Shown: positions 5,266 through 60,252, counted from the first letter of the stretch. The stretch: DNA of 64,000 nt from Deltaproteobacteria bacterium RIFCSPHIGHO2_02_FULL_40_28 (GCA_001798135.1 MGRJ01000030.1:321-64320); one strand, 5' to 3'. Made by a program: numbers and translations. The notes: generated by a model from the sequence alone, not told the origin.

Positions 5266-5276
5266 GTGCCTGGCAC
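5266..5276 (+). repeat. GTGCCTGGCAC palindromic site, copy 1
   Basis: taagcGTGCCTGGCACcaat, downstream of hicB. Confidence 0.9.
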
Positions 5277-5296
5277 CAATACGTTGTTGAGGCATA

Positions 5297-5629
5297 TTAT
5301 TGATCCATCACTCTTGAGAGAATGTATTGATTAATCGAAACACCCTGCTCAGCAGCCTGAGTTGCTAATTGACGATGAACTTCTGGGGAGGTTCTTAATG
5401 TTAAATTACCCTTGAATTGCTTTGTTGAAAATGGTTCTGGAATTTCTTCTTTGTCATCCTTCATCCATTTAAGCGTGGCCGACACAACTTTTTTAATAGC
5501 TTTAATGGCCATCTCGATTTTTTTGCCGTGGGCTTTAAGGGTAGGTAACTCAAGACAAGTTGCAATATGGGCATTATCCTCTTCGGACCATTCAACGCGG
5601 TAGGTATATTTATCTACAAGGTCTTTCAT
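5297..5629 (-). CDS. hicB: HicB-family antitoxin
   Basis: YTYRVEWSEEDNAHIATCLELP..AHG and C-terminal FKGNLTLRTSPEVHRQLA..GVSINQY; start moved to MKDLVDK. Confidence 0.85.
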   Translation of the reverse strand: MKDLVDKYTYRVEWSEEDNAHIATCLELPTLKAHGKKIEMAIKAIKKVVSATLKWMKDDKEEIPEPFSTKQFKGNLTLRTSPEVHRQLATQAAEQGVSINQYILSRVMDQ

Positions 5630-5735
5630 TTTTGCAATGACTCCCTCTAATTCTTGGTTTTCCAAAGTAATGAATACAAATATTTAACAGATCCTTAAAT
5701 CTTACATTCTTTGGATTTGCCAGATCCTCTAGCAT
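5610..5735 (-). pseudogene. hicA: Truncated HicA toxin (41 codons)
   Basis: Hand translation MLEDLANPKNVRFKDLLNICIHYFGKPRIRGSH then runs out of frame into hicB; C-terminal half missing. Confidence 0.75.
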
Positions 5736-5740
5736 AAAAG

Positions 5741-5769
5741 ATGATAGCATATGCGCTATCACATTACAA
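5741..5769 (-). promoter_or_regulatory. hicAB promoter with palindromic operator
   Basis: Minus strand TTGTAA-17-TATCAT-5 nt-ATG; overlapping GATAGC-N6-GCTATC. Confidence 0.6.
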
Positions 5770-5810
5770 CCCGATTATTTGCTTAAAAAAATAGGTTCCG
5801 ATTTGCAAGC

Positions 5811-5821
5811 GTGCCTGGCAT
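5811..5821 (+). repeat. GTGCCTGGCAC site, copy 2 (GTGCCTGGCAT)
   Basis: tttgcaagcGTGCCTGGCATcaag. Confidence 0.85.
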
Positions 5822-5835
5822 CAAGCTTCAACATT

Positions 5836-6069
5836 TTACGCTGCTTTCAGACGCTTTATTCCATCTGCTATCAAAAGACGCATAAGAACTTGATAAGGCA
5901 CGCCTCGTTTGTCGGCGAGTGATTTTAATTCATCAAGCAGTTCTTCCTCAAGAGCAACGCTTGTTGGCTTTCGACGATTGCCCTTCAATCGTCTCATGCC
6001 TGCAATAATTGCTTTGGGATCAAAATCAATCCGATCATAAACTTTCAATCTTTTTACATATTTCTTCAT
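5836..6069 (-). CDS. CopG/BrnA-like ribbon-helix-helix antitoxin
   Basis: KPTSVALEEELLDELKSLADKRGVPYQVLMRLLI pattern. Confidence 0.75.
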   Translation of the reverse strand: MKKYVKRLKVYDRIDFDPKAIIAGMRRLKGNRRKPTSVALEEELLDELKSLADKRGVPYQVLMRLLIADGIKRLKAA

Positions 6070-6104
6070 AAAGTTTGCCAGATTATGAATTTAAACTGAG
6101 CCAT
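6066..6104 (-). pseudogene. 12-codon remnant of a toxin (BrnT-like by context)
   Basis: MAQFKFIIWQTL*; its stop overlaps the antitoxin start (ATGA); preceded by TTGCCA-17-TACTAT and palindrome TATAGT-AC-ACTATA. Confidence 0.5.
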
Positions 6105-6151
6105 GTATAACACTATAGTACACTATACTAATGGGGTTGGCAAGTTATTTT

Positions 6152-6178
6152 GGGCAACCACAAGGGGGTTGCCCCTAC
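6152..6178. repeat. GTAG-type REP half element
   Basis: GGGCAACC-acaaggg-GGTTGCCC-CTAC; near-identical at ~38165 and ~54189. Confidence 0.75.
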
Positions 6179-6269
6179 GGGTTTTAATTATAATTATATA
6201 AAAAGAAAAGGCCCGCCGATTTGTAACAACCAACAGGCCTCTTTTAGAGGGAGGTAGACTGATAAACTT

Positions 6270-6779
6270 TTAAGCCGCCGCTACTTCTTCTTTCTTATGA
6301 GAAAGGGTTTTAATTTTTCTTTCCAAAGAATTTACCTTACGGTTCAATTCATCCACTTCATCCTTACTGGGAATTGAAAAAAGTTTAAAAACTTGACGAC
6401 GTGTATTTTGTGCTGCATCAACAGCTTTTTCTAACAAACCATACGACTGAAACTTTTGTACTAATTCGTCCACACTGCCTCTTACTTCGTTAATAAGCCC
6501 GCGGGCTGCATCTAAATCAACTTTCTTAATGTTGGCCAAAATTTCATCAGCTACCTTTTTTACTTCTTTAGATAACTCTGTGGAACTAATCTTACCAACA
6601 ATCTCATCAAAATTCTTTTTAATGAGCTTGCTTGATTTTTCGCTGCGTTTTTTCAAATGACCTAACGCTTTTTCTACTTCACCTTCCAACTTAGCAATAA
6701 CTTCATTAATTTTCCCCAATCTGTCCTTTAAGAACTGATTATGAGCTTGTTTTGATTTATTCTTTACGGGCATTGGCAA
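6270..6779 (-). CDS. Helical protein with PhaF/PhaI phasin-like C-terminus
   Basis: Amphipathic helices; FSIPSKDEVDELNRKVNSLERKI resembles phasin-family C-termini. Confidence 0.45.
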   Translation of the reverse strand: MPMPVKNKSKQAHNQFLKDRLGKINEVIAKLEGEVEKALGHLKKRSEKSSKLIKKNFDEIVGKISSTELSKEVKKVADEILANIKKVDLDAARGLINEVRGSVDELVQKFQSYGLLEKAVDAAQNTRRQVFKLFSIPSKDEVDELNRKVNSLERKIKTLSHKKEEVAAA

Positions 6780-6861
6780 CCTCCAAGTAGATGTTTAATG
6801 TTAAAAAGAACTAACACAACGCGTCATGAAGTGTCAACACAAAAAATAACGCAATGCATTA

Positions 6862-8550: not shown

Positions 8551-8553
8551 GAT

Positions 8554-11220: not shown

Positions 11221-11223
11221 ATT

Positions 11224-14063: not shown

Positions 14064-14087
14064 TTAAATGAGAAATTCAGCTTTTCT
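14064..14087 (-). repeat. Displaced copy of the alaS 3' end (att-like)
   Basis: Encodes RKAEFLI* versus alaS KKAESLI* (15497..15520); 19/24 nt identical. Confidence 0.65.
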
Positions 14088-14135
14088 TGTTGTTGTGAAT
14101 TGCTAATTCCGTTTAAAGCACTTCCTGTGGGATTT

Positions 14136-14438
14136 TTATATGACCATGGAAAATTGATGTACCCTTTTCCAGTTTTTTGAAGTGGTTGATGCTCCCCACA
14201 AATCATAATGTTGCTGTAAATTCAACCAGAGTTCAGGCGTGGTATTAAAAGCCTTAGCCAGACGGAGAGCCAGTTCAGGAGAAACCCCACATCTTTCGTT
14301 CACTAACATGGAAAGTGTTTTTCTGGATACCCCAAGAACCTGGGCTACTTTAGATACAGTTAGCTCAAGGGGTTCCAAATAATGTCTTTTTAAAATACCA
14401 CCAGGATGGGTGGGAGCACGTTTACGTTCTTTTTTCAT
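14136..14438 (-). CDS. higA: HigA antitoxin
   Basis: PTHPGGILKRHYLEPLELTVSKVAQVLGVSRKTLS..SPELALRLAKAFNTTPELWLNLQ; start MKKER follows AAGGAG. Confidence 0.9.
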   Translation of the reverse strand: MKKERKRAPTHPGGILKRHYLEPLELTVSKVAQVLGVSRKTLSMLVNERCGVSPELALRLAKAFNTTPELWLNLQQHYDLWGASTTSKNWKRVHQFSMVI

Positions 14439-14454
14439 AACCAAACTCCTTAAT

Positions 14455-14585
14455 GGGCTTGTTGAAAAATGTAGTTTTCCACTAATTCTGTCATTCCCGC
14501 GGAGGCGGGAATCCAGTCTTTTCAATAAGTTCTGGATCCCTGCCTTCGCAGGGATGACAGAGGAATGACATTCTTCAACAGACCC
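14455..14585. mobile_element. 131-bp MITE, copy 1 (TIRs, internal REP doublet, TTAAT TSD)
   Basis: Ends GGGCTTGTTGAAAAATGT / ACATTCTTCAACAGACCC; TTAAT on both sides; exact reverse complement of 57971..58101. Confidence 0.9.
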
Positions 14586-14864
14586 TTAATGATAATCGAC
14601 ATAGTCCACTTGATAGGCATTTCCATTTTCAAATTCAAAAATCACCCTCCAATTCCCAGTGACTCTTACTGACCAAAAACCTTTTAATTGCCCTTTCAAT
14701 TCATGCAAGTGAGACCCAGGATAATTCAGGTCTTTAATGGTTACTGCAGCATGAAGGCTATCCAGGATATCCCCTAATTTTTGGGCATCTTTAGGTTGAA
14801 TGCCCTTTTTGGTTCCCTCATAGAAAAAACCTTCCAACCCCTTGTGAGCAAAGCTTTCAATCAC
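14586..14864 (-). CDS. higB: HigB toxin (plasmid-maintenance killer type)
   Basis: MIESFAHKGLEGFF..LHELKGQLKGFWSVRVTGNWRVIFEF..VDYVDYH; GTG start. Confidence 0.92.
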   Translation of the reverse strand: MIESFAHKGLEGFFYEGTKKGIQPKDAQKLGDILDSLHAAVTIKDLNYPGSHLHELKGQLKGFWSVRVTGNWRVIFEFENGNAYQVDYVDYH

Positions 14865-14868
14865 GTTT

Positions 14869-14893
14869 AAGTGTAACTGATATAGTTACACTT
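14869..14893. promoter_or_regulatory. higBA operator/promoter
   Basis: AAGTGTAACT-N5-AGTTACACTT inverted repeat; minus-strand TTGTAA-17-TACACT-5 nt-GTG. Confidence 0.7.
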
Positions 14894-14935
14894 TACAAGT
14901 GTTTTCCTTAGAAAACAGAAAAGAAAACAAACCCG

Positions 14936-15172
14936 TCACTTGTCAATAACAGTAATGATGAGTTTTGAGTGAGAAATTTGATAGATAATGCGATAAGTGC
15001 CAACCCGGTATTTATACAAACCCTTAAGCTCTCCATGAAGCGGAACACCGCACTGGGGTTCTTCGGATAATAAATCAATCACCTTTGAAATTCGAAGCCC
15101 CATTTGAGGCTGGGATTTCATGACAAGATTAAAAAAATTTTCCGCTTGTTTGGTAAGTACAACTTTGTACAT
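14936..15172 (-). CDS. relE: RelE/ParE toxin, probably C-terminally truncated
   Basis: LHGELKGLYKYRVGTYRIIY; ends at VIDK* without the usual GHR..Y tail. Confidence 0.75.
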   Translation of the reverse strand: MYKVVLTKQAENFFNLVMKSQPQMGLRISKVIDLLSEEPQCGVPLHGELKGLYKYRVGTYRIIYQISHSKLIITVIDK

Positions 15173-15179
15173 GAAAAAA

Positions 15180-15449
15180 CTAGAGTTTGTGTTTGGTTTT
15201 AATCCTAGTCCAACTGATTGTGTTACCTTTTTTTGCTTCTTTTAATCCCAAACGAATTTTCTTTAGATTTTCTTTGTCAGATATTTCATTTAAAGTTTCA
15301 ATCATACTTTCATAATCATCGATGGAAAGTAAAATAGCAATAGGATCCCCTCTTTTGGAAATCACAAAACGATCTAAACGTTCATCAACGCTATTTATAA
15401 CCTTGGGTAGCTTAGGTCTTAATTGTTTGAGTGTAATATGTTGGTACAT
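15180..15449 (-). CDS. Phd/YefM-family antitoxin
   Basis: ITLKQLRPKLPKVI..FVISKRGDPIAILLSIDDYESMIETL. Confidence 0.88.
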   Translation of the reverse strand: MYQHITLKQLRPKLPKVINSVDERLDRFVISKRGDPIAILLSIDDYESMIETLNEISDKENLKKIRLGLKEAKKGNTISWTRIKTKHKL

Positions 15450-15496
15450 AGTATACACTAAAGGATACACTTAAAAAATGATTTGTCAATACGGCT

Positions 15497-18124
15497 TTAA
15501 ATAAGCGATTCGGCTTTTTTAAGGGCTTCGGAAAGCTTAGAAACATCAGGGCCACCAGCTTGGGCCATATCGGGACGGCCGCCACCTTTTCCTCCCACGA
15601 TGGGGGCAATTTCAGAAATTATTTTTCCTGCATTGTATTTTGCAGTCAAATCAGCACTTACAGTAACAATCAATAAAACTTTATCCGCTCCTTTGGCGGC
15701 AATAACTGCAATTCCACTCCCTAAGCGGGATTTGACTTGATCAGAAAATTCGCGCAGGGCTTTTGGATCATCCATCTCAATTTCAATGGAAAGAAAACGC
15801 ACTCCTTTAATTTCTTTTACATTTTGTAAATAATCGCTTCCCCCTCCCCCACCACTTGCTACCTTTGATTTTAAACGCGTTATTTCTTGTTCCAATTCTC
15901 GAATGCGCTCACTTGTTTTTTTAATTTTAAGGGAAAGCTCCTCGGGAGATGATTTTAACAAAGAAGCTAGTTCACCCAACAGGGCTTCCATCTCTTGAAA
16001 AAGAGCAATGGCTTTCATTCCGGTAACTGCCTCAATACGTCGCACCCCAGAAGCTACAGAAGATTCACTTGTAATTTTAAAAATCCCAATTTCACCTGAG
16101 GCATCAAGATGCGTACCTCCACACAATTCCATGCTGTAAGGTCCAATGGTTACCACCCTCACCCGATCCCCATATTTATCACCAAAAAAAGCAGTGGCTC
16201 CTTTTTTCTTAGCTTCATCAAAACTGTGTTCTTCTTTGGTTACAACATAGTTTGCTTGAATTACCTCATTTACACGCCTTTCAATCTTTTGAATTTCTTC
16301 CCGCGTTAAAGCTGCAAAATGAGAAAAATCAAAACGAAGACGTTCGGGCGTAACAAGTGATCCTGCCTGCTTTACATGATCTCCTAAAAGTTCCCGCAAG
16401 GCTGCATGCAAAATGTGAGTGGCTGTGTGGTTTAACATGGTGGAACGACGACAAACTAAATTAACCTGTAAATGAATTTTATCTCCTACCTTTATCAAAC
16501 CTGAAATCACTTTTCCTTGATGAACAATTAATCCATCCACTGGTTTTTGAGTGTCATCAATTTCTAACTTGGCTTTACCTGATGTAATAACTCCCTTATC
16601 CCCCACTTGTCCGCCAGATTCTCCATAAAAAGGAGAATCGTTGGAAATCACTTCCACTTCAACACCGTTTTCTGCTTGCTCTACAGGGTTTCCTTCTTTG
16701 ATCAAAGCCACAATTGTAGAGTTGGCCTCTAAACCTTCATACCCCACGAAGTGGGTTTTACCTTTTTCTTGAACTAATTGTTGATAAATGGCTCCCACTT
16801 TTTCTTGTCCACTGCCCTTCCAGGCAGCACGCGCACGTTTCTTTTGATCTTCCATGGCTGAATCAAAACGAGTTTTATCTACACTCATTCCTTTTTCAGC
16901 TAAAATAATTTCAGTGAGATCGAGTGGAAAACCAAAGGTATCGTACAATTTAAAGGCGGTGGCCCCATCAAAAATTTTTCCTTTTTGATGTGAGGTTTCT
17001 TCCTCAATCATTTTCAAACCTTTTTCCAAAGTTTCAAGAAAATTTTCTTCTTCTATTTTAGCTGCCTTTAAAATGAACTCTTGATTTTTTTCTAAATCTG
17101 GATAGGCGGCTCTCATTTCTGCCACAAGGGTTTTAACTCCTTCATAAAAGAAGGGTTCATTCATTTTAAGCAAACGTCCATGGCGAATAGCTCGGCGCAT
17201 GATGCGCCTTAAAACATAACCACGTCCTTCGTTAGAAGGAAGAACTCCATCTCCAATTAAAAAAGTCATGGCTCTTAAATGGTCGGCTAGTACCCGAAGT
17301 GAAACATCCTGCTCTGGATTTTTTCCGTAAGCAACACCGGTTCTTTTTGAAAAAAAATGAATGAGTGGAAAAAATAAATCGGTTTCGTAATTGGAATTTT
17401 TTTTCTGTAAAACAGCGGCGAGACGTTCTAAGCCCATACCAGTATCTATCGATGGTTTTGGAAGTGGTGTTTGCGCACCTTTTACAGTGCGCTCAAATTG
17501 CATGAACACCAAGTTCCAAATTTCCATAAAATCGTCGGGATGGGTGGCAGGATTTCCTGGGGAAGGTTTGCTTTTTAAGGTAGCACCCAAATCAATATGA
17601 ATTTCGGAGCATGGGCCGCAAGGGCCTACCTCTCCCATGGACCAAAAATTATCGGCTTCATCTAAACGGATCATTCTTTTTTGAGGGAAGTTCACTTCCT
17701 TTTGCCAGAGCTTTTCAGCCTCAAAATCTTCTCGAAACACCGTTACCCAAAGCACATCTGCGGGAATTTTCACTGTTTCTGTTAAAAATTCCCAAGCATA
17801 AACAATGGCTTCTTTTTTAAAATAATCTCCAAACGAAAAATTTCCCAACATTTCAAAAAAGGTATGATGACGAGGTGTACGGCCTACATTTTCTAAATCG
17901 TTGTGCTTACCAGAAACACGCATACACTTCTGAGAACTAACAGCTCTCGTATAATCGTGTTTTTCTTCCCCGGTAAAAAGATTTTTAAACGGAACCATCC
18001 CTGCATTTACAAAAAACAAGGTAGGATCGTTAAAAGGAACAAGTGAGCTACTTGAAACAAGATGATGTTTTTTGGACTCAAAATATTTAAGGAACTTTTG
18101 GCGGATTTCGTTTCCTGTCAGCAT
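15497..18124 (-). CDS. alaS: Alanine--tRNA ligase
   Basis: LFFVNAGM, RHHTFFEMLGNFSFGDYFK, DTGMGLER, HTATH, ELCGGTH, GGGRPDMAQAGG. Confidence 0.99.
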   Translation of the reverse strand: MLTGNEIRQKFLKYFESKKHHLVSSSSLVPFNDPTLFFVNAGMVPFKNLFTGEEKHDYTRAVSSQKCMRVSGKHNDLENVGRTPRHHTFFEMLGNFSFGDYFKKEAIVYAWEFLTETVKIPADVLWVTVFREDFEAEKLWQKEVNFPQKRMIRLDEADNFWSMGEVGPCGPCSEIHIDLGATLKSKPSPGNPATHPDDFMEIWNLVFMQFERTVKGAQTPLPKPSIDTGMGLERLAAVLQKKNSNYETDLFFPLIHFFSKRTGVAYGKNPEQDVSLRVLADHLRAMTFLIGDGVLPSNEGRGYVLRRIMRRAIRHGRLLKMNEPFFYEGVKTLVAEMRAAYPDLEKNQEFILKAAKIEEENFLETLEKGLKMIEEETSHQKGKIFDGATAFKLYDTFGFPLDLTEIILAEKGMSVDKTRFDSAMEDQKKRARAAWKGSGQEKVGAIYQQLVQEKGKTHFVGYEGLEANSTIVALIKEGNPVEQAENGVEVEVISNDSPFYGESGGQVGDKGVITSGKAKLEIDDTQKPVDGLIVHQGKVISGLIKVGDKIHLQVNLVCRRSTMLNHTATHILHAALRELLGDHVKQAGSLVTPERLRFDFSHFAALTREEIQKIERRVNEVIQANYVVTKEEHSFDEAKKKGATAFFGDKYGDRVRVVTIGPYSMELCGGTHLDASGEIGIFKITSESSVASGVRRIEAVTGMKAIALFQEMEALLGELASLLKSSPEELSLKIKKTSERIRELEQEITRLKSKVASGGGGGSDYLQNVKEIKGVRFLSIEIEMDDPKALREFSDQVKSRLGSGIAVIAAKGADKVLLIVTVSADLTAKYNAGKIISEIAPIVGGKGGGRPDMAQAGGPDVSKLSEALKKAESLI

Positions 18125-39603: not shown

Positions 39604-41136
39604 TTAAATTCCCTGGGGTGACTTTCTGGAGGTGGCTTCTCCCATGCGATTAATGGCCTGAAGAAAAGCCATGGCTGAAGCTACGATAATATCGGTATGG
39701 GCTCCACTCCCCCGTGTTGTTTTTTTATTATCCGAAATGGTGACAAAAACTTCACCTTGCGCGTCTGTGCCTCCTGTAATGGCATTAACTCCATACCGCT
39801 CTAAGGTGCCCTCAAAATGAGTAAGATTTTTAATAGCCTTGTAAACGGCATCCACAGGGCCAGCTCCCATTTCTGTAGCGAACATTTCTTGACCATTTTT
39901 TTCCACCACAACACTTGCACTAGCTAGTTTTGTACTTTCACTCACCACTTTCGAAGATTTAAAAATATATTTGTCCCTTGTTTTTTCTTCTTGGGTTTCC
40001 ACTAATGAGAGAATATCTTCGTCGTAAACATTTTTTTTACGATCTGCCAAATCTTTAAAAGCCTTGAAAGCTCGATCTAGCTCCACGTCATCTAAGGGCA
40101 CACCCAACACATTTAAACGCTCACGAAAAGCATGACGACCTGAATGCTTTCCCAAAATTAATTTATTACGCGGAATGCCAACAGATTCTGGAGTCATAAT
40201 TTCATAAGTTTGCTGATATTTTAAAATCCCATCTTGATGAATACCCGCTTCATGAGCAAAGGCATTATCTCCCACAATGGCCTTATTAGGTTGCACATGC
40301 ATACCGGTAATATGAGTTAACAATTTAGATGCCGGATAAATTTGCTCTGTGCGAATGCTGGTGGTGTAAGGTATTTTATCTTTGCGTACATTAAGCGTCA
40401 TCACAATTTCTTCCAAAGAAGCATTGCCTGCGCGCTCACCAATGCCATTTACTGTACACTCTACTTGCCTGGCACCATTCTCAACAGCAACAAGAGAATT
40501 AGCCACAGCTAAACCCAAATCGTTATGGCAATGCACACTGATAACAGCTTGATTGATATTGGGCACATTTTCCTTCAAGTACCGAATCAGGGCACCAAAC
40601 TCTGATGGAATGGTGTAGCCCACCGTATCTGGCACATTGATGGTGGTAGCTCCGCTAGCAATGACGGTTTCAAAAACCTTGGCCAAATAAGCCCTATCAC
40701 TTCGGGTTGCATCTTCAGCCGAAAATTCGACATCGGGAGTGTAGTGTTTGGCATGGGCCACTGCAAAGGCTGCCTCTTCTAATACCTGCTCCCTGGTTTT
40801 ATTCAGCTTGTACTTTAAATGAATATCTGAGGTTGCAATAAAGGTATGAATACGTGGGCGTGCGGCATTTTTAACTGCTTCCCAGCAACGATCAATATCC
40901 ATTTTATTGGCTCTCGAAAGACCAGCAACCACAGGGCCCTTCACTTCTTTTGCAATGGTTTTTACTGCTTCAAAATCACCTTGAGAGGCAACAGGAAACC
41001 CCGCCTCAATAATATCTACATTCAGCTTAGAAAGTTCTATGGCCATGCGGAGCTTTTCATCCAGGTTCATACTACATCCTGGAGATTGTTCCCCATCACG
41101 CAGAGTTGTATCAAAAATTTTAATCACATGATTCAT
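39604..41136 (-). CDS. leuA: 2-isopropylmalate synthase
   Basis: [46 protein letters not shown]. Confidence 0.98.
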
Positions 41137-51877: not shown

Positions 51878-51891
51878 TGGTAATATTCATT

Positions 51892-53085: not shown

Positions 53086-53117
53086 AATAAAATTATTAGC
53101 CTTTTTTATAATATTGT

Positions 53118-53144
53118 CAAATATAAAATTGAATTTTATATTTG
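53118..53144. promoter_or_regulatory. 13-bp perfect inverted repeat at the AAA-gene promoter
   Basis: CAAATATAAAATT-G-AATTTTATATTTG, overlapping minus-strand TTGACA. Confidence 0.55.
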
Positions 53145-53156
53145 GTTAATGGAATA

Positions 53157-54080
53157 TTAAGCAAGCGTGTCTGGCACCAAGATTGATTCCATTTCTTTCA
53201 AAACAAATTCAATGAGAGGAGAATACACATTTTGAAGCTGGGCTTTTTCAAGAGTATCGTAATAGATACTTTTGTTTTCAGTATGAATAACCAGGAGTGG
53301 GTAGCCTTGGCTTAATAATTGAAAATTTAAAAGAAGTCGCCCTATACGTCCATTGCCATCACTAAAAGGGTGAATCGCCTCAAACCAGGCATGTTGCATA
53401 ATCATTCCTAGAGGGTCTTTAGTGACCTGCATTTGGGAGATAAGTTCTTCCATTTTTTCTGAAACTTTTAAAAAATTGGGAGGAATGAGGTTAGTACCCA
53501 CAATTCGTACTGGATGATTTCTAAAATGTCCGGCATCAGTCAGAATTCCACTCATCAAAATTTGATGAAGTTCAAAAATTAAATTGAGGGTAAGTGTTTC
53601 TTTTTCTTTGGCAGCTTCTAAAATTTTAGTAAAGGCTTGGCGGTGATTACTTACCTCTAAATGTTCAACCAGAGAATGGCGTGGCACAACTTGGTTATCA
53701 AAAAGAATCGTCTGTGTGTCACGCAAGGTAAGAGTAGACCCCTCAATGCTGTTGGTATGGTAGGTAAATTGTAAAAGACAATGATCATGCCAATTTTTTT
53801 GTAACAACAAATGTTCTAAAAAGTTTTCTTTTTTAAAAGCCTCCAATTTTTTTTGCCATAAAGAAAGTGGGGCCTCTTTCTCCAATTTTTCATAAAAGGC
53901 ATATTGGAGAAATATTTGTTTTATTTTTTCGATTTGGCGTGGATGAGGTTTTGTTTTTTGGTGTACCCAACGGTTTAAAGTAGCATGCGTAACGTTTAAA
54001 ATTGTTGCCAGGGAGGTCTGGGTAAATTTCCCCTGCTTTAAGAGGGCATTAAGCCAAATGATATAATCTGCTATTACCAT
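53157..54080 (-). CDS. HTH-Fic family protein
   Basis: N-terminal XRE HTH; TYHTNSIEG; canonical HPFSDGNGRIGR. Confidence 0.92.
   Translation of the reverse strand: MVIADYIIWLNALLKQGKFTQTSLATILNVTHATLNRWVHQKTKPHPRQIEKIKQIFLQYAFYEKLEKEAPLSLWQKKLEAFKKENFLEHLLLQKNWHDHCLLQFTYHTNSIEGSTLTLRDTQTILFDNQVVPRHSLVEHLEVSNHRQAFTKILEAAKEKETLTLNLIFELHQILMSGILTDAGHFRNHPVRIVGTNLIPPNFLKVSEKMEELISQMQVTKDPLGMIMQHAWFEAIHPFSDGNGRIGRLLLNFQLLSQGYPLLVIHTENKSIYYDTLEKAQLQNVYSPLIEFVLKEMESILVPDTLA
53167..53177 (+). repeat. GTGCCTGGCAC site, copy 3 (GTGTCTGGCAC), inside the Fic 3' end
   Basis: gcaagcGTGTCTGGCACcaagatt. Confidence 0.85.
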
Positions 54081-54085
54081 GGCCT

Positions 54086-54133
54086 TATTTTATATATTTT
54101 ATAACTTTTTTTCAAGTAAAAATATATAAAATA
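54086..54133 (-). promoter_or_regulatory. Fic promoter with 15-bp inverted repeat
   Basis: TTGAAA-17-TAAAAT-6 nt-ATG; TATTTTATATATTTT-N18-AAAATATATAAAATA. Confidence 0.65.
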
Positions 54134-54148
54134 TAACTGTTATCTGGC

Positions 54149-54213
54149 GTAGGGGCCCGCCTTAGGCGGGCCCTCGTATCATCATTCCGGGCAACCGCAA
54201 GGGTTGCCCCTAC
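54149..54213. repeat. GTAG-type REP doublet
   Basis: GTAGGGGCCCGCCTTAGGCGGGCCC...GGGCAACCGCAAGGGTTGCCCCTAC. Confidence 0.85.
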
Positions 54214-54263
54214 TACAAAATTCTATTAGACAATACTCCAAAATTTGGTTAAGATATTGGAGT

Positions 54264-55421
54264 ATGTTCCATAGAATACTTAACCCATTAAAATCTAACA
54301 GTTTTTTTATTTTTGGAGCCAGAGGAACAGGCAAATCAACCTGGATTAAAAATCAGTTTGATGCTCAAGATGTATTTTTTATCGATCTCTTGAAACCGGA
54401 GATTGAAGACCTTTATCGAAGAACTCCGCAGCTTTTGGAAAAACAAATCCTCTCCATGGAATCAAAGCCCAATTGGGTAGTTTTGGATGAGGTGCAACGA
54501 TTACCTAAGCTACTTAACCTGGTCCATTCGCTTATCGAATCTCATGGAATAAAATTTATTCTCACTGGGTCAAGTGCCCGTAAACTTAAACGAGGACATG
54601 GTAATCTTTTAGCTGGCAGGGCTTATGTGTATCATTTGTATCCGCTTACAAGCATTGAAATGGGAGAATCATTCCATTTGGAATCTTGTCTCTTATGGGG
54701 AAGCTTGCCAAAAATATTAAGTCTAAATTCTCATGAGGAAAAAAGCGCATACTTAAATGCTTATGCATTAACTTATTTGCGCGAAGAAATTCAAATTGAG
54801 CAAGTGGTGCGTAAACTGGATCCCTTCCGTGACTTTTTGGAAATAGCCGCGCTCATGAGTGGCTGTATTATCAATTACAATAAAATTGCTAAGGATGTTG
54901 GATGCGACATCAAAACAGTTCAATCCTATTATCAAATCCTCGAAGACACCTGGCTTGGTTTTTATTTACCGGCTTTTCACAGATCGGTAAGAAAAAGTCA
55001 GCGACTCCACCCTAAATTTTATTTTTTTGACCTAGGGGTTAAACGAGCTTTAGAAAGAAGTTTGGATACCCAGTTGCATCCCAGTACTTCCGCTTATGGA
55101 GATTTCTTCGAGAGCTGGGTCATTTTGGAATTTTTCCGCTGGAATGAATATTATCAAAAAAACTACAAGCTTTCTTACTTTCAAACCCACCAGGGAGGTG
55201 AAATTGATCTCATTTTGTCTAAACCTAAGCAACCACCCATTCTTGTTGAAATCAAATCTTCCCAAAAAATTGATGAAATCGAGGTTAATAAACTGGCCAC
55301 ACGAGGTAAAGATTTTAAAACCCCACATCTTTATTATCTTTCACAATCCGAACAAACAATAAAACATGCCGGAGTCATCTGCTGCCCGTGGATGACCGGC
55401 CTCAAAAAAATTCTTGGGTAA
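54264..55421 (+). CDS. AAA_14 ATPase with DUF4143 domain (second paralog)
   Basis: GARGTGKST, LDEVQR, LTGSSARKL, HPKFYFFDLG, EIDLIL..LVEIK; start at MFHRIL. Confidence 0.9.
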   Translation: MFHRILNPLKSNSFFIFGARGTGKSTWIKNQFDAQDVFFIDLLKPEIEDLYRRTPQLLEKQILSMESKPNWVVLDEVQRLPKLLNLVHSLIESHGIKFILTGSSARKLKRGHGNLLAGRAYVYHLYPLTSIEMGESFHLESCLLWGSLPKILSLNSHEEKSAYLNAYALTYLREEIQIEQVVRKLDPFRDFLEIAALMSGCIINYNKIAKDVGCDIKTVQSYYQILEDTWLGFYLPAFHRSVRKSQRLHPKFYFFDLGVKRALERSLDTQLHPSTSAYGDFFESWVILEFFRWNEYYQKNYKLSYFQTHQGGEIDLILSKPKQPPILVEIKSSQKIDEIEVNKLATRGKDFKTPHLYYLSQSEQTIKHAGVICCPWMTGLKKILG

Positions 55422-55436
55422 AAGATATGTGGTAGC

Positions 55437-55447
55437 GTGCCTGGCAC
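55437..55447 (+). repeat. GTGCCTGGCAC site, copy 4
   Basis: gtagcGTGCCTGGCACgatt. Confidence 0.85.
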
Positions 55448-55478
55448 GATTGGATGTGGGTGTTGCACGATTGGTGTT

Positions 55479-55757
55479 TTAAGCAGCTTGTTTCAGTTTA
55501 AAATCGACCGCCTTACCCAAACGAGCCAAATAAACGATGAGTAAATCAAGACTAAACTTATCTATTTTGCCGTTCATCAACTCGGAAACTCTAGGTGGTT
55601 TTACTTCTAACTCCTTGGCAACTTCGGCCTGAGTAAGTTTAAGTCTTACAATTTCTTTCTCGAGAAGAATGATAAGGCGAGCTCTAGCTTCAAGATTAGC
55701 AGACTCCGCATCACTAAAACCAACATCTTTAAATACGTTTTTAACGGATTTTTTCAT
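55479..55757 (-). CDS. XRE/HigA-type antitoxin
   Basis: NVFKDVGFSDAE..LTQAEVAKELEVKPPRVSELMNGKIDKFSLDLL. Confidence 0.88.
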   Translation of the reverse strand: MKKSVKNVFKDVGFSDAESANLEARARLIILLEKEIVRLKLTQAEVAKELEVKPPRVSELMNGKIDKFSLDLLIVYLARLGKAVDFKLKQAA

Positions 55758-55760
55758 AAT

Positions 55761-56105
55761 TTACTCCTTGATCTTTAAATTGCCAATTCGACGAATCAAT
55801 TCTTGGTAATTTTTCTTTGCTATTTCAATATCCCGCTGAGAAGTTTTTTGAGTTTTCTTTTCAAAAGCATGCAAGATGTAAACTCTGTCTTTAAGTTTAG
55901 CAACATAGATCACTCGATGTTCACCGGGCCGATGAAGGCGAATTTCCAAAACTCCTTTTCCTACGCTCGCCATCGGTTTGTAATCTGTGGGTATAAGCCC
56001 CTGCTGAACACGATAAAGCTGATAGCCAATTTCAGCTCTAACTTTCTTAACAAAGCCTTGTACAATCTCACGGGACCTGCCCAACCACTTGAGACTTTTC
56101 AACAT
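55761..56105 (-). CDS. RelE/HigB (Gp49-like) toxin
   Basis: LKWLGRS..GYQLYRVQQG..YKPMASVGKGVLEIR..HRVIYVAK..ILHAFEKKTQKT. Confidence 0.9.
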   Translation of the reverse strand: MLKSLKWLGRSREIVQGFVKKVRAEIGYQLYRVQQGLIPTDYKPMASVGKGVLEIRLHRPGEHRVIYVAKLKDRVYILHAFEKKTQKTSQRDIEIAKKNYQELIRRIGNLKIKE

Positions 56106-56112
56106 AGTATAT

Positions 56113-56130
56113 GTTACGTAATCACGTAAC
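56113..56130. promoter_or_regulatory. Operator palindrome of the 55479-56105 TA pair
   Basis: GTTACGT-AATC-ACGTAAC within TTTACA-17-TAACAT. Confidence 0.6.
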
Positions 56131-56191
56131 TTTTGTAAAGGATTATTTTACTCAATATAGGCGTAACATCTGCTTCAAATGCTTTGCAAGC

Positions 56192-56202
56192 GTGCCTGGC
56201 AC
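56192..56202 (+). repeat. GTGCCTGGCAC site, copy 5
   Basis: aatgctttgcaagcGTGCCTGGCACcaagattacaaagatt. Confidence 0.9.
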
Positions 56203-56207
56203 CAAGA

Positions 56208-56900
56208 TTACAAAGATTCCAATCGCTTCGCTAAAACAGCATAATCCCTTTTCACTGCCATGGCGGTTCGGTAGGAACCGTAACACTGTTTTGCCAACGC
56301 GTAGGTACTCACATTCTGGTTGAGTTCCATTTGAGCAAACATATCGGCACGGTGAGTGGGGCCAATCAAAACACGAAAGCGATACGATGGATGAACTTGA
56401 ACAAGCTCCGCTGGTGTCAGGATGTCTTCGGGACGATGTCGCAATAATTTACTGGGAACACGCAAACACGTTTTAGCAAAACGTGAATCCTCACCGTTTC
56501 TTTGGATCAAGAAGCTTCTGTTCTCACCTGCAATACCAATTCTCCTCGAAGACACCAGAGAAAGCAGTTTCTTAAACCGGATATCGTGATGACGAATTTG
56601 TGCAAATGCCGCCCAAAATATTCGAACATGTTTGAATTCTTTTTGATCCAAATTCAAAACCAGATTCACTAGACGATCCGCCAGAACTTTATCGGCATGA
56701 ACCTTCAACCAATCCACGAGCAAAGACTGAACGCGCCAATCGCCTTTAAGACCTTCAATCGACGCGGCAACCAAGGTGTCTTCAATGTTGGGATTTTGGA
56801 CTGGTTTTCCGAACAACCGAAAACCAATACCAATCAAACACGATGTCAACTCGTCGCCTGATGGGTAAAACTCAGGAATAATTGTACGCTTAAAAGTCAT
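56208..56900 (-). CDS. Hypothetical partner of a DUF6036-like nucleotidyltransferase
   Basis: 230-aa ORF whose start overlaps the upstream NTase stop; PNIEDTLVAASIEG..RV.SLLVDWL. Confidence 0.65.
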   Translation of the reverse strand: MTFKRTIIPEFYPSGDELTSCLIGIGFRLFGKPVQNPNIEDTLVAASIEGLKGDWRVQSLLVDWLKVHADKVLADRLVNLVLNLDQKEFKHVRIFWAAFAQIRHHDIRFKKLLSLVSSRRIGIAGENRSFLIQRNGEDSRFAKTCLRVPSKLLRHRPEDILTPAELVQVHPSYRFRVLIGPTHRADMFAQMELNQNVSTYALAKQCYGSYRTAMAVKRDYAVLAKRLESL

Positions 56901-57219
56901 AGCTTAATTCCAGCGCCAGTTTCGCAAAACACTTCTGCACATGTGAGGACCACTGGGGGTTTTGATCCTGGTTTTTAACCCAATCCAGAGCTTCTAAAAG
57001 TTCTGCCTGAGAAGGGTTCATTTTGATGCAATCGGCAATGTCTTGACCACGATCACAGTAAGCAAATAACTTTGATTTAAGAACATCGATATCCTTTGTG
57101 CCACGCGTGGTGATTCCCATGAGCGCGAGTGCGCCACCACCTATAACAATTCCTGAGAACGAGGTATTTTTTGAAAACAGAAAATCATCGAAATCCTGAA
57201 TGACAGAGACAACATCCAT
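56890..57219 (-). pseudogene. DUF6036-like nucleotidyltransferase with probable internal deletion
   Basis: IVIGGGALAL..TRGTKDIDVL joined directly to KSKLFAYCDRGQD; only 109 aa. Confidence 0.6.
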
Positions 57220-57226
57220 GGGTGTG

Positions 57227-57255
57227 ATTATATAGCATACCCAATGCTCAGGCAA
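57227..57255 (-). promoter_or_regulatory. sigma70 promoter, leaderless
   Basis: TTGCCT-17-TATAAT-7 nt-ATG(57219). Confidence 0.65.
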
Positions 57256-57469
57256 GTTATAAATCTATTTTCCAGAACATCGGTTTTCATCCGATATTCA
57301 AAAGCAACTCAAGTGATTATTATGTTTGTTTTATTTAGTTATTTCAATGAATTTTCAAAAGGTTGGAAACCGAGAGAAGCATCTGAAGTTACATTTCATG
57401 GATAAATTTATCGTAAAATCAGGGAGGAAAAGTTGTAGAGAAAAATAAAGAAAAATGATTATTTTTTAT

Positions 57470-57497
57470 GTAGGGACGCGATAAATTACACCCCTAC
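57470..57497. repeat. Collapsed GTAG...CTAC REP remnant
   Basis: GTAGGGACGCGATAAATTACACCCCTAC. Confidence 0.6.
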
Positions 57498-57520
57498 AAA
57501 AGGAATGTGGCAGTAGTAAT

Positions 57521-57826
57521 TTAAAGTATCCCTTGATATTCAAAACTTACCAAAAGTTTTGCTTTTAATGCCCGCGCAATTCGCTCTAAAAGATCAAGTG
57601 ATGGCGTACGCTTATCTATTCCGGATTCTAAGCGAGCAATAACAGTTTGGCTGGTTTTTGCGCGTGCCGCAAGTTCTGCCTGAGTAATACCAACTTTGAG
57701 ACGAGCATCACGAATCAACCGAGCAATTTTACTAATAGATTTTTCGTGTTGAAAATAAAAACTAAACTCAGAATCTTTGAGTTCTTTTTTGATTACATCC
57801 TTTAAGGCTATTCTTTTTGCTTTCAT
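57521..57826 (-). CDS. XRE-family HTH antitoxin
   Basis: ARLKVGITQAELAARAKTSQTVIARLESG..PSLDLLERIARAL; start at MKAKR. Confidence 0.88.
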   Translation of the reverse strand: MKAKRIALKDVIKKELKDSEFSFYFQHEKSISKIARLIRDARLKVGITQAELAARAKTSQTVIARLESGIDKRTPSLDLLERIARALKAKLLVSFEYQGIL

Positions 57827-58119
57827 GATAATGACGAAACTGAACTCTGACAGAGTTGAAACTATTCTGTTCAATCTGATCAAGCGCTTCCAATAATCGA
57901 GCTCGTTCCTTTTTTGGTAAATCCTTCATGTAATCCAACACAGGAGATCTACCAGAAGCAATTGTATAAAGGGTCTGTTGAAGAATGTCATTCCTCTGTC
58001 ATCCCTGCGAAGGCAGGGATCCAGAACTTATTGAAAAGACTGGATTCCCGCCTCCGCGGGAATGACAGAATTAGTGGAAAACTACATTTTTCAACAAGCC
58101 CATAAAAAGTGATTTTCAT
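57768..58119 (-). pseudogene. Gp49/RelE-like toxin interrupted by a MITE and C-terminally deleted
   Basis: Removing the MITE and one TSD restores MKITFYTIASGRSPVLDYMKDLPKKERARLLEALDQIEQ... Confidence 0.8.
57971..58101. mobile_element. 131-bp MITE, copy 2 (ATAAA TSD)
   Basis: Exact reverse complement of 14455..14585; ATAAA on both sides. Confidence 0.9.
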
Positions 58120-58131
58120 CTACTTTATGAA

Positions 58132-58149
58132 TATATCCAATTGGATATA
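58132..58149. promoter_or_regulatory. Operator palindrome upstream of the Gp49 pseudogene
   Basis: Perfect 18-bp palindrome TATATCCAATTGGATATA within TTGAAA-17-TATATT. Confidence 0.65.
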
Positions 58150-58214
58150 AAATTTCAAGGATTATTTTCAGGCAACGCTTATCGGTGTCATTGATTTTTC
58201 AATGGCTTGCAAGC

Positions 58215-58225
58215 GTGCCTGGCAC
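58215..58225 (+). repeat. GTGCCTGGCAC site, copy 6
   Basis: cttgcaagcGTGCCTGGCACcaagattcaccaagattacgattac. Confidence 0.9.
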
Positions 58226-58293
58226 CAAGATTCACCAAGATTACGATTACGAAATGACTTTCATTTTCTATCTCTTGGTTTATAATCTTTATT

Positions 58294-58437
58294 GTGAAAC
58301 GCAAAACCAAAAATAGAGCTAAAAAAAATAGTAGAAAAAAGCAGAAAGTCATTACGCTAACTCCGCAAATGACCCGTAATATCTTGGCTGTTATCCGTTC
58401 TGCCGATTTTGTGCAACAAGTACGCTCTTACCTTTAA
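58294..58437 (+). CDS. 47-aa basic small protein, probable partner of the downstream NTase (not in ORF track)
   Basis: GTG start 7 nt after TATAAT; MKRKTKNRAKKNSRKKQKVITLTPQMTRNILAVIRSADFVQQVRSYL*; ends 5 nt before the NTase ATG. Confidence 0.5.
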   Translation: MKRKTKNRAKKNSRKKQKVITLTPQMTRNILAVIRSADFVQQVRSYL

Positions 58438-58442
58438 ATAAC

Positions 58443-58931
58443 ATGAAAACCGTTCATCCTTATTTTCTTATTCTGGGCAAATTGACCAAAGAGGGGGTGC
58501 GTTACGGAGTTGTTGGCCAAATAGGAGCTTCTTTCTATGGCTCTGATCAAACCACCTATGATCTGGATATTTTTGTGGAACCCCAAGAAAAAAATCTTTC
58601 CAAGGTAAGGCGCCTGCTTAAAAAAGAAGGGTTGATAGAAATAGCTATTGTCGGAGGCCAAGCGGTAAAACCTTCTCCGACAAATAAAGAGGTGATTGAT
58701 CGGCAGATCACCCTTTTGTATGCCGACCCTTATGGTTTGACCATTGATGTGCTTACGGCTATTAGCGGAGTTAATTTTAAAAAGGTTTGGAAAGGAAAAA
58801 AACTTTTTAAAATGAGGGAAGAAAAAATTTATGTGGCTTCCTTAACAGATATTATTCATTCCAAAAAGAGTGCGAACCGACCCAAAGATCGTCTTCATTT
58901 GTCCCGACTTAAGGCTTTACTTAAAAAATAA
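58443..58931 (+). CDS. Minimal nucleotidyltransferase (DUF6036-like)
   Basis: YGVVGQIG..YG..TTYDLDIF, IDVLTAISGV, VASLTDIIHSKK..RPKD. Confidence 0.75.
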   Translation: MKTVHPYFLILGKLTKEGVRYGVVGQIGASFYGSDQTTYDLDIFVEPQEKNLSKVRRLLKKEGLIEIAIVGGQAVKPSPTNKEVIDRQITLLYADPYGLTIDVLTAISGVNFKKVWKGKKLFKMREEKIYVASLTDIIHSKKSANRPKDRLHLSRLKALLKK

Positions 58932-58943
58932 TGCTTTGCACGC

Positions 58944-58984
58944 GTGCCTGGCACAAAGATTCTGGCACCAAGATTCACAAGATT
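58944..58984 (+). repeat. GTGCCTGGCAC site, copy 7, plus partial tandem duplication
   Basis: GTGCCTGGCACaaagattCTGGCACcaagattcacaagatt. Confidence 0.9.
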
Positions 58985-59350
58985 TTACACCAATCTTCGA
59001 TAGTTGCAGTTTAGAGCCTTGGCTAATTTTTTAGCCACTTGAAGACCGATGGTTCTTTTGTTTCTTTCCATTTCGGAAATATGGCTTTGCCTGATCCCCG
59101 TTTTTTTTGCCAGATCTTTCTGAGTCATCTCCTCCCTATAACGGTAGGCTTGAATTGTTCCACCAGGAGTACCAATGAGGGGATCGCGTTTCTTGAGAAT
59201 CTCATGCATTTTATCAGAAGAAATATAATCATCCTTGGCTTGAAGAAGCTTCAAAAGGTCCTTTTTAATTTCTAAAATCCTCGAATAGGAAATACGTGAG
59301 GGAACAAACCTAATCCACCCTGCTTTTCCTTCAATAGTAATTGCTTCCAT
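58985..59350 (-). CDS. XRE-family HTH antitoxin
   Basis: TPGGTIQAYRYREEMTQKDLAKKTGIRQSHISEMERNKRTIG..AKKLAKAL. Confidence 0.88.
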   Translation of the reverse strand: MEAITIEGKAGWIRFVPSRISYSRILEIKKDLLKLLQAKDDYISSDKMHEILKKRDPLIGTPGGTIQAYRYREEMTQKDLAKKTGIRQSHISEMERNKRTIGLQVAKKLAKALNCNYRRLV

Positions 59351-59355
59351 AATTT

Positions 59356-59625
59356 TTAGTAAATGTCCTTTCTATCGGCAATCTTTTCAATGAAAACCGT
59401 GATGATATTGGATTCATATCGATAGATAACTCTATAGTTCCTTTTTAATTTTGCCTTTAGATAACCATCCCATTTGCCTGCTAAAAATCCTATCTGCCAT
59501 CCTTTAGGAAATGGACCATCGCGTTCTAAATCATTTAAAAACATATCATAAAGCTTTGCAACCTTGGGAGGAATATCCCTCAACATTTTTTCAATCTTTG
59601 GCGGTGCTTTTACAATCCATTTCAT
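59356..59625 (-). CDS. RelE/ParE-family toxin
   Basis: YLKAKLKRNYRVIYRY..VFIEKIADRKDIY; start at MKWIVK. Confidence 0.75.
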   Translation of the reverse strand: MKWIVKAPPKIEKMLRDIPPKVAKLYDMFLNDLERDGPFPKGWQIGFLAGKWDGYLKAKLKRNYRVIYRYESNIITVFIEKIADRKDIY

Positions 59626-59633
59626 TTTAATAT

Positions 59634-59651
59634 TATCCCATAAATGGGATA
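59634..59651. promoter_or_regulatory. Operator palindrome
   Basis: TATCCCAT-AA-ATGGGATA. Confidence 0.65.
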
Positions 59652-59834
59652 TTTTCAAGAAATTAATTCAAAACTCAAAAACTCCTAAGCAAGCTTAAGC
59701 AATTTTCATGCTAAAAATAGACCCATGAATTTTAAAGGATTATGAGAGGGAAATGATTATTTTAAATCAAAAGAAGTTTGAAAATCGAACCATGAGGTAA
59801 AGTTGTGGTTTTCGTGCCCTATTTATTTATCTTT

Positions 59835-60252
59835 GTCATCACGAGGAGGCCTATGGCCGACGTGGTGATCCAGGTTAAAGAGAGCCTGGATTGCTTTAGC
59901 CCCTACGTTGCCCCCCAACGGGGCCCCTTTGGGTTGGCGCAGTTCTCGCTCCCTCATGTCTACGATGTGGCACTGATATCAATTATTTTCCAATGGTTTG
60001 CAAGCGTGCCTGGCACCAAGATTGTAAGACTCTACCCCCTCCAACTCCCCCTTACAAAGGGGGAGAGTACAGATGGATCCCGGCCTTCGCCGGGATGACA
60101 AGAGCAGCATGGATGACAGAGTGGGGGAGACATTTTTCAACAATCCCTCAATGTAGGCGTAACATCAGCTTCATAGGGACTTTAATCCAGGTTTATTGGA
60201 TTTGAATGCTTTGCACACGTGCCTGGCACAAAGATTCGGAACCCGCCCCTAC
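59835..60252. repeat. Mosaic of REP-type families including GTGCCTGGCAC copies 8 (60006) and 9 (60219) and a MITE-end remnant
   Basis: GTCATCACGAGGAG..GTGATCCA..TGGATTGCT; CTCCCCCTT-ACA-AAGGGGGAG; GGATCCCGGCCTTCGCCGGGATGAC; ACATTTTTCAACAATCCC; GCCCCTAC. Confidence 0.8.

Follow-up and report, generated by a model that had tools for sequence, protein, structure and literature searches.

Co-oriented repeats at the borders of stacked toxin–antitoxin and defense cassettes in an uncultured groundwater bacterium

Toxin–antitoxin (TA) and defense genes are known to cluster, and how tiny modules without a recombinase come to be stacked outside integrons and tRNA-linked islands is poorly understood. 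Here, we analyze a repeat in a 64,000-nucleotide stretch of Deltaproteobacteria bacterium RIFCSPHIGHO2_02_FULL_40_28 (MGRJ01000030.1:321-64320; hereafter the window, with positions counted from its first letter), nine copies of which stand, all on the + strand, at the borders of TA and defense modules. We propose that cassettes lacking an integrase were inserted one after another in a site-directed manner by a recombinase acting in trans and that these sites are the joints that remained, a reading to which we assign a probability of roughly 45%. If it is correct, the capture of cassettes would extend beyond IntI/attC chemistry, and the site would offer a simple sequence signature for recognizing such stacks in metagenome-assembled genomes (MAGs). 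A low-copy junction with a sharp edge is a concrete substrate for asking which enzyme cuts and whether cassettes circularize; should the site turn out not to move, the locus would still document serial long-repeat insertion of addiction modules.

The source organism is an uncultured groundwater bacterium present at ~20x depth in several aquifer metagenomes. Its ribosomal protein S2 shares no more than 68% identity with proteins from MAGs labelled 'Deltaproteobacteria', one close relative at 94% excepted.

Nine copies of an asymmetric repeat share one orientation

The repeat has the form (AATGSTTTGCA)AGC-GTGCCTGGCAC-(MAAGATT), in which the core is a near-perfect 5-1-5 palindrome. With at most one mismatch allowed, GTGCCTGGCAC is matched 17 times in the 64-kb window against 0.49 expected. 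These matches comprise nine + strand sites (cores starting at 5266, 5811, 53167, 55437, 56192, 58215, 58944, 60006 and 60219), palindromic echoes for seven of these nine, and one match at 40465 that we rejected as a tenth site, as it falls within a leuA-like open reading frame (ORF), lacks the flanks and is probably due to chance. An nhmmer profile made from the nine copies recovers 9/9 of them at E-values from 1e-12 to 2e-6, together with a partial copy at 58962–58980, and detects no further copy elsewhere in the window or in the 10 kb past either window end on the 105-kb ENA contig (~84 kb covered). Both the mismatch search and the profile bear out an earlier note on this DNA, made from the sequence alone, which had placed nine co-oriented sites at these positions. 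The same note had seen none in housekeeping operons, and the profile search agrees over the ~84 kb: the biosynthetic and ribosomal genes around and between the two groups of sites (roughly 45 kb) are free of copies, as is the ~70 kb of housekeeping DNA and ordinary intergenic space on this contig.

Reading of the flanks and a repeat finder define the unit as a left arm, T(C)AWTKATTTTYCAATGSTTTGCAMRC, that is at most ~34 nt long, followed by the 11-nt palindrome and a right MAAGATT, and these asymmetric flanks are common to all nine copies in the same orientation. The repeat is 35–60 nt long overall. Its best pair, 58188–58232 and 59979–60023, is 91% identical over 45 nt, and it reaches ~59 nt if a block common to 56151–56177 and 60147–60173 is counted. 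The repeat thus extends further than had first been stated. Orientation is independent of gene direction: it is kept around an inverted cassette at 58226–58943, where a + strand gene lies between 58215 and 58944, and a + strand gene (54204–55421) is likewise found in the first module of the larger group.

Several copies stutter, in that 9–14 nt of the right half of the site recur as tandem partial copies. These read ACCAAGATT/ACAAAGATT at 56201, an exact 10-nt tandem of two CACCAAGATT at 58222, CTGGCACAAAGATT/CTGGCACCAAGATT/CACAAGATT at 58948, and two copies of GCACGATTGG at 55443/55464. They bear out the stuttered 3' tails noticed before.

Two alleles of the site can be distinguished, GCAAGC..CAAGATT and a second type, GCACRC..AAAGATT, the latter at 58944 and 60219 (31/32 alike). 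Bases on both sides of the core covary in the two alleles, which suggests that most of the site has been inherited as a single piece, and the alleles interleave 1-2-1-2 at 58215, 58944, 60006 and 60219. Identity is highest among the five sites at 56192–60229 (27–31/32) and lower for those at 5266, 5811, 53167 and 55437 (17–27/32).

Every site lies between unrelated modules

The nine sites form two stacks. Stack A consists of the sites at 5266 and 5811, which bound one unit, and stack B of the seven sites at 53167–60229, which bound six, so that there are n+1 repeats for n units. Every site stands at the border between functionally unrelated modules, whatever the gene direction, as had been claimed when the sites were first said to delimit TA and defense modules. 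The flanking genes are of TA or defense type: HicB, CopG/BrnA-like, HTH-Fic, two DUF4143 ATPases (PADLOC PDC-S01), Gp49/HTH_37, a DUF6036 nucleotidyltransferase (NTase), HTH_3 and HigB/RelE-like proteins. The cassettes are small (0.2–2.3 kb), with a G+C content of 0.37–0.40 against 0.39 for the window. From left to right, the features are as follows.

5244–5286 (+): site A1, degenerate; core 5266–5276; nhmmer E 8e-9; flanked by the otsA stop (5209) and the hicB stop (5297)
5277–5810 (−): cassette A; hicB 5297–5629/5665 and a truncated hicA-like ORF 5610–5762, bracketed by sites A1 and A2
5793–5832 (+): site A2, GGCAT variant; core 5811–5821; beyond the CopG/BrnA-like antitoxin gene (5836–6069), 15 nt from its stop
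53146–53188 (+): site B1, GTGTC variant; core 53167–53177; overlaps the last 7 codons of the HTH-Fic gene
53178–55436: cassette B1; HTH-Fic gene 53157–54080 (−) and DUF4143/AAA_14 ATPase gene 54204–55421 (+)
55410–55450 (+): site B2, most degenerate; core 55437–55447; nhmmer E 2e-6; right half repeated as GCACGATTGG 21 nt downstream
55448–56191 (−): cassette B2; Gp49 toxin gene 55761–56105 and HTH_37 antitoxin gene 55479–55757, with a GTTACG operator palindrome at 56113–56130
56151–56218 (+): site B3; core 56192–56202; extended left block 56151–56177, common with 60147–60173
56203–58214 (−): cassette B3, two modules; the first (56208–57255) encodes a 230-aa protein and the DUF6036 NTase, the second an HTH_3 protein (57521–57883) and a Gp49-like toxin split by a hairpin-repeat miniature inverted-repeat transposable element (MITE, ~57968–58101)
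58188–58241 (+): site B4; core 58215–58225; exact tandem of two CACCAAGATT; 91% identical over 45 nt to site B6
58226–58943 (+): cassette B4, inverted; 47-aa ORF 58294–58437 and 162-aa NTase-like ORF 58443–58931
58916–58984 (+): site B5, type 2 (GCACGC...AAAGATT); core 58944–58954; followed by two partial right-half copies at 58962–58984
58955–60005 (−): cassette B5; HigB/RelE-like toxin gene 59356–59658 and HTH_3 antitoxin gene 58985–59350
59979–60027 (+): site B6, best profile match; core 60006–60016; nhmmer E 1e-12
60017–60218: cassette B6, gene-less, 202 nt; hairpin-repeat element 60024–60147 and a 27-nt remnant (60147–60173) of a B2-like promoter region
60192–60241 (+): site B7, type 2 (GCACAC...AAAGATT); core 60219–60229; 60 nt past the stop of a 416-aa orphan gene (60289–61539)
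63770–64000 (−): 3' end of xerD (full gene 63770–64672), listed as context and not as a part of the system

Stack A runs in the order otsA stop, site 5266, hicB with truncated hicA, site 5811, CopG/BrnA-like antitoxin. Its hicA-like ORF reaches the GSH motif and then passes out of frame into the hicB start, and the toxin has probably been inactivated beside an intact antitoxin. Stack B is bordered on the left by a tetratricopeptide repeat (TPR) gene and a DUF4143 ATPase and on the right by the 416-aa gene, which is nearly an orphan. Site sequence enters coding sequence in two of its cassettes: the tail of the HTH-Fic protein, ...ILVPDTLA*, is encoded by site B1, and the stutter at site B3 codes for the last codons of the 230-aa gene.

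The family is low-copy and has a sharp edge

Copy number was estimated in Logan contigs of the runs that contain this genome at ~20x, with five motif queries carrying different site variants; the contig alignment needs roughly 24 aligned bases and recovers only some of the known copies per query, and short degenerate copies may escape it. The variants at 56192, 60219 and 5266/5811 matched only contigs of this locus, and those at 58215 and 60006 also matched a 24.5-kb contig (30/35), an 8.6-kb contig (32/33) and a 199-nt contig at 3.4x. Because the 24.5-kb and 8.6-kb contigs have the same depth of ~20, they probably belong to the same genome. In the extra copies, homology covers the left arm and palindrome and stops directly after GGCAC-C. 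Their right flanks are unrelated to MAAGATT and agree with each other at only ~8–12/30 positions, and in one of them TGGCACC is duplicated four bases further on. Since these copies are spread over contigs and end at the same sharp edge, the unit has spread between loci and has a defined border.

In total, ~11 copies were detected in the contig sets of whole metagenome runs, from no fewer than four loci on three or more contigs. Judging from these alignments, the family is low-copy and multi-locus rather than genome-wide; a few more copies are possible, and hundreds are excluded. The earlier note had held that many copies in ordinary intergenic regions would speak against its idea, and the contig sets do not contain them. 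Searches for the site in a plasmid collection gave insignificant matches only, and in the literature its sequence matched only human or mouse primers.

The site resembles neither attC, REP, dif nor a promoter

Integron attC sites are 57–141 bp long, carry R'' (RYYYAAC) and R' (GTTRRRY) boxes at their ends and are recombined as a folded single strand. On neither strand does a pair of the form RYYYAAC-N40-130-GTTRRRY lie within 150 nt of any site, on a background of 6 and 5 such matches on the two strands of the window. When five sites were folded as single-stranded DNA, both strands did no better than shuffled sequences (z from −1.67 to +1.25, and ~0 for most copies), with a 4-bp stem at the core only. 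The integron-like accretion array first envisaged is a fair description of the layout, and conservation declines from the right end of the main stack as accretion at one end would predict; as a mechanism it stays hypothetical, and the site is not attC-like, there being neither R''/R' boxes nor a hairpin. A dif/Xer-type or lox-type core was likewise rejected, with a best arm complementarity of 5/11 at 6–8 nt spacers. No predicted sigma-70 promoter or intrinsic terminator coincides with any copy, and neither Rfam nor a tRNA/tmRNA search (ARAGORN) gave a match at the sites.

These properties also bear on the alternative that had been offered from the start, a repetitive extragenic palindromic (REP) family with a replication-strand bias, here widened to any small selfish repeat of REP or MITE type that happens to accumulate in gene-poor accessory DNA. 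Like REP elements and bacterial interspersed mosaic elements (BIMEs), the copies are short and intergenic, have a palindromic core and are possibly strand-biased; they are co-oriented on a replichore-like stretch along which GC skew is monotonic, and the genome does hold true hairpin repeats and MITEs. Unlike REP families, which have a stable imperfect palindrome of 20–40 nt and tens to hundreds of copies scattered through ordinary intergenic DNA, the site forms no stable hairpin (z −1.7 to +1.3), has conserved asymmetric flanks and shows neither terminal inverted repeats nor a consistent target duplication. No gene for a REP-associated tyrosine transposase (RAYT, HUH) is among the genes called in 84 kb. 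A repeat of this kind would also be expected in the ~70 kb of ordinary intergenic space that lacks it, and its ~11 copies in runs at ~20x contrast with a depth of >4000 for the real hairpin repeat of the community. We consider a REP or MITE origin very unlikely.

The motif could also be a relic, either of a sigma-54 promoter that has collapsed or of a multi-copy gene whose 3' end has been displaced. The minus strand does hold both sigma-54 boxes (GGCACG-C-TTGCA), but the GG-to-GC spacing is 7 nt and not the 10 of the consensus TGGCACG-N4-TTGCW, which led us to reject a sigma-54 promoter; on the + strand, TGGCAC-N5 is followed by TTAC, TTCA, TTGT, TTGA, TTCT or TTCG, so that the −12 GC is not conserved. 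As for a former gene end, the site can be read through in all three minus-strand frames and contains the end of the Fic gene, yet differences between copies are not synonymous in any frame, and the right flanks of the extra copies share too few positions. A conserved small ORF, taken from the consensus of two loose ends, was discarded on the same grounds, the two flanks agreeing at only ~12/30 positions. Apart from the Fic gene, which runs into the site, no window gene ends in the site sequence. A relic of either kind can be given hardly any weight.

The near-perfect palindrome without single-strand structure could instead be read as a protein-binding element (an operator, insulator, silencing or nucleoid-protein site) that binds a dimer through its 5-1-5 core and is kept for regulation. 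At three cassettes the site lies 50–60 nt upstream of a predicted minus-strand −35 box, and the MAAGATT heptamer repeats at a spacing of 9–10 nt in the manner of iterons. Against this, three sites (5266, 55437 and 58944) have no minus-strand gene downstream, other TA modules of the window (14136–15470 and 63353–63724) have no site, and a single operator common to unrelated TA families is not expected. The asymmetric 20–45 nt flanks are moreover conserved like copied DNA and not like independently evolved binding sites. Regulation as the reason for the repeat is in our view quite improbable.

Cassettes may be added at one end by a recombinase in trans

The flanks of the sites offer clues to how such a stack might form. 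Sequence to the left of 56192, 58215 and 60219 is homologous over a further 27–60 nt, which correspond to the upstream region of Gp49-type cassettes, and in a related higBA fragment of a different organism homology ends at 56149, two bases ahead of the block common to the junctions. The site therefore appears to be tied to the cassette on its left and seems to travel with it. Because the homology edge and all stutters fall there, the comparisons point to an exchange at the right side of the palindrome, and the gradient of site identity suggests that the main stack adds cassettes at its right end and decays at its left.

In the model that we propose, the motif would be a joint conserved across a low-copy family of small cassettes without a recombinase of their own. 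The cassettes, mostly type II TA pairs plus a Fic protein and a DUF4143 ATPase, would be placed head to tail at a few chromosomal places, and each would carry 35–60 nt consisting of the left arm and GTGCCTGGCAC at one end, which is promoter-proximal for minus-strand cassettes. A new cassette would enter at a resident site, with exchange at or just right of the palindrome, so that each joint would retain a single site and all sites would point the same way irrespective of cargo direction, and partial right-half copies would accumulate as stutters at the exchange point. Growth of the main stack would take place at the right end (56192–60229) and decay at the left. The enzyme would be encoded elsewhere, act in trans, and read the site as double-stranded DNA rather than as a folded hairpin.

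Two further observations count in favor of serial insertion. Single cassettes elsewhere in the window are bracketed, without an integrase, by 24–32 nt direct repeats of the alaS and xerD 3' ends. In addition, the contigs of the only close relative, found in SRR22387758 (RpsB 94%, XerD 95%), diverge or break exactly at both borders of the region: on the xerD side they stop 22 nt beyond the end of the gene, and on the TPR side unrelated sequence is followed by the contig end 100 nt beyond the stop. The region in the relative either differs or assembles poorly there. A second run search for relatives returned the same aquifer strain only. Cassette homologues in other organisms of these metagenomes either have no site or break off ahead of it, which speaks neither for nor against mobility, and exact matches to the cassette protein and flank genes always have the same gene context.

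Several results weigh on the other side. Apart from xerD, no recombinase, transposase or HUH gene was found in or near either stack (~84 kb), and the site has neither attC boxes nor arms in the style of tyrosine recombinases around a 6–8 bp spacer. Contigs of four metagenome runs contain no empty site, excised form, alternative cassette order or skipped cassette, although rare variants may hide in contigs; the only joints in these population contigs are at hairpin repeats. Covariation of both arms in the two type-2 sites fits copying of the whole site at least as well as a crossover in the core. Finally, a 20-mer scan of GTDB genomes and JGI metagenomes gave six matches, all of them chance matches in coding DNA (one in a phage primase), and viral contigs gave 0; the GTDB and JGI scans did not return the window's own contigs and bear on other organisms only.

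The sole recombinase gene in the ~84 kb, xerD, lies 3.5 kb right of stack B. Its product scores 366 bits against an equivalog cutoff of 329.6, and 133 bits against integron-integrase models where 265 are needed. The gene is of housekeeping type and provides weak evidence for Xer involvement.

Direct repeats around addiction modules can also arise without a recombinase. Restriction-modification units insert with target duplications of 30–400 bp, often over a gene 3' end and with no mobility gene (PMC2853133), and the stacks here could have formed if addiction modules landed repeatedly in one target, duplicating 10–45 nt each time, with stutters as aborted or reverted events. Such duplication would account for the brackets at the alaS and xerD 3' ends and for a 20-nt one in a contig from another aquifer organism (L023, below), and it fits both the whole-site covariation of type 2 and the exact 10-nt tandem at 58222. 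The cassettes resemble the restriction-modification units in being addiction modules with direct repeats of at least 30 bp near gene 3' ends and no mobility gene (Furuta, Abe and Kobayashi 2010, PMC2853133). In those insertions, however, the repeat is unique to its locus and single in the empty-site strain (PMC2853133), whereas here seven copies follow one another and at least four separate loci have the repeat, although a duplicated target should be local and otherwise unique. In the extra copies the palindrome is a sharp limit of homology, no gene can be identified whose 3' end would have served as the target, and the interleaved alleles demand extra assumptions. We judge insertion by long target duplication unlikely.

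Relation to integrons and other accreting elements

Cassettes of Vibrio superintegrons include TA pairs, and clusters of attC sites lacking integron-integrases (CALINs) consist of attC sites without an integrase (PMC4889954, PMC13108822). The stacks described here are like integron arrays and CALINs in having one co-oriented site per joint, small mixed cassettes rich in TA and defense genes, a conservation of sites that suggests growth at one end, TA cassettes with their own promoters of which a minority is inverted, and, as in CALINs, no need for an adjacent integrase. Unlike integron sites, this one is plain double-stranded DNA of 35–60 nt without R''/L''/L'/R' boxes or a bottom-strand hairpin, and it is promoter-proximal in minus-strand cassettes instead of 3' of the ORF; no IntI is encoded within ~84 kb, and the stacks are tiny (1 and 6 cassettes).

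Tycheposon satellites are integrase-less elements that accrete in tandem at att sites. The units here are similar to them and to cis-mobilizable elements (CIMEs) in being bounded by direct repeats and arranged head to tail without a recombinase of their own, which would make them dependent on an enzyme provided in trans. Tandem accretion at att sites is described for the CIMEs as well as integrative and mobilizable elements (IMEs) of Firmicutes (PMC5704250). CIME repeats are derived from the 3' end of a target gene for a tRNA or a protein and have a known integrase-bearing partner, whereas neither a target gene nor a partner element has been identified here, and the present units are far smaller (0.2–2.3 kb).

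The pdif modules of Acinetobacter plasmids and integrative mobile elements exploiting Xer (IMEX) are small, often carry TA genes, are bounded by short sites and are moved by host XerC/XerD in trans. Sites of dif type have two 11-bp inverted arms around a 6-bp center and are AT-rich, and pdif sites alternate in orientation. The cassettes described here share the small size, the frequent TA cargo and the short bounding sites, and xerD lies 3.5 kb from the main stack; the motif differs in lacking the inverted-arm layout and in that all copies are co-oriented.

Judged by the defining features of the integron, REP and dif families, the site belongs to none of them, and the likeness to integrons, CALINs and CIME-like accretion is one of layout only. 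Whether the stacks represent a mechanistically distinct, integron-like form of gene capture is a broader claim that we regard as doubtful. It would comprise a hairpin-less double-stranded site of ~35–60 bp, a sharp crossover edge at GTGCCTGGCAC, addition at one end, and a trans-acting recombinase, possibly a host Xer-type enzyme acting off its usual site, that stockpiles TA and defense cassettes in an uncultured deltaproteobacteria-like lineage.

Other repeats and genes in the window

Direct repeats of a different sequence bracket single modules at two places in the window. The 3' end of alaS (AAAAAGCCGAATCGCTTATTTAA) recurs in degenerate form 1.4 kb downstream, and the copies enclose two TA pairs without an integrase (14064–15520). 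The last 32 nt of xerD (GGCCCATGAAAAATTTCATCCGAGGGGATAG) recur ~420 nt downstream around a 123-aa ORF without a family match (63320–63801), and the xerD 3' end of the relative matches both copies. Contig L023, from another aquifer organism, has an equivalent 20-nt direct repeat (545–564 and 1692–1711) that copies a gene's own stop region. Judging from these brackets, insertion of small addiction modules in this community is habitually accompanied by direct repeats and takes place with no integrase resident there.

Similarity of the 416-aa orphan protein to two proteins from the same aquifer is confined to its first 93 residues, at 69–70% identity. The remainder of those two differs, one of them having a DUF4407 domain, and the homologue at 742–1701 of L023, a TA-rich contig, is the gene that the 20-nt repeat brackets there. 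This pattern suggests a modular domain at the N terminus to which different C-terminal parts have been joined by swapping.

Two further types of repeat are also present. The first, a hairpin repeat (TGTCATCCCTGCGAAGGCAGGGATCCAG...) at 57997–58101, 60024–60101 and 14486–14590, is part of a roughly 130-nt MITE, and one copy splits the Gp49-like toxin gene. Logan assemblies break at this repeat, and its contigs reach a summed depth of >4000 in each run, so many organisms of the aquifer community have it in common. The second, CCCCTAC...GTAGGGG, is REP-like and G+C-rich; it lies at 57494–57518, 60254–60278 and 6150–6180, follows several minus-strand gene stops and also occurs in contigs of other organisms (L018, L023).

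Between the 416-aa gene and the xerD bracket, 61715–63142 encodes a 475-aa protein without a family match. Its N-terminal half is rich in Gly and Ala and resembles beta strand, and after a long linker of Pro, Val and Gly comes a C-terminal domain of its own; a place at the cell surface or in the outer membrane is possible. At the other end of the window, 2990–5209 is 99.8% identical to 9596–11826 of contig L022 from a different assembly, a strain variant in which the otsA-fusion gene is divided into two ORFs by either a frameshift or an assembly error.

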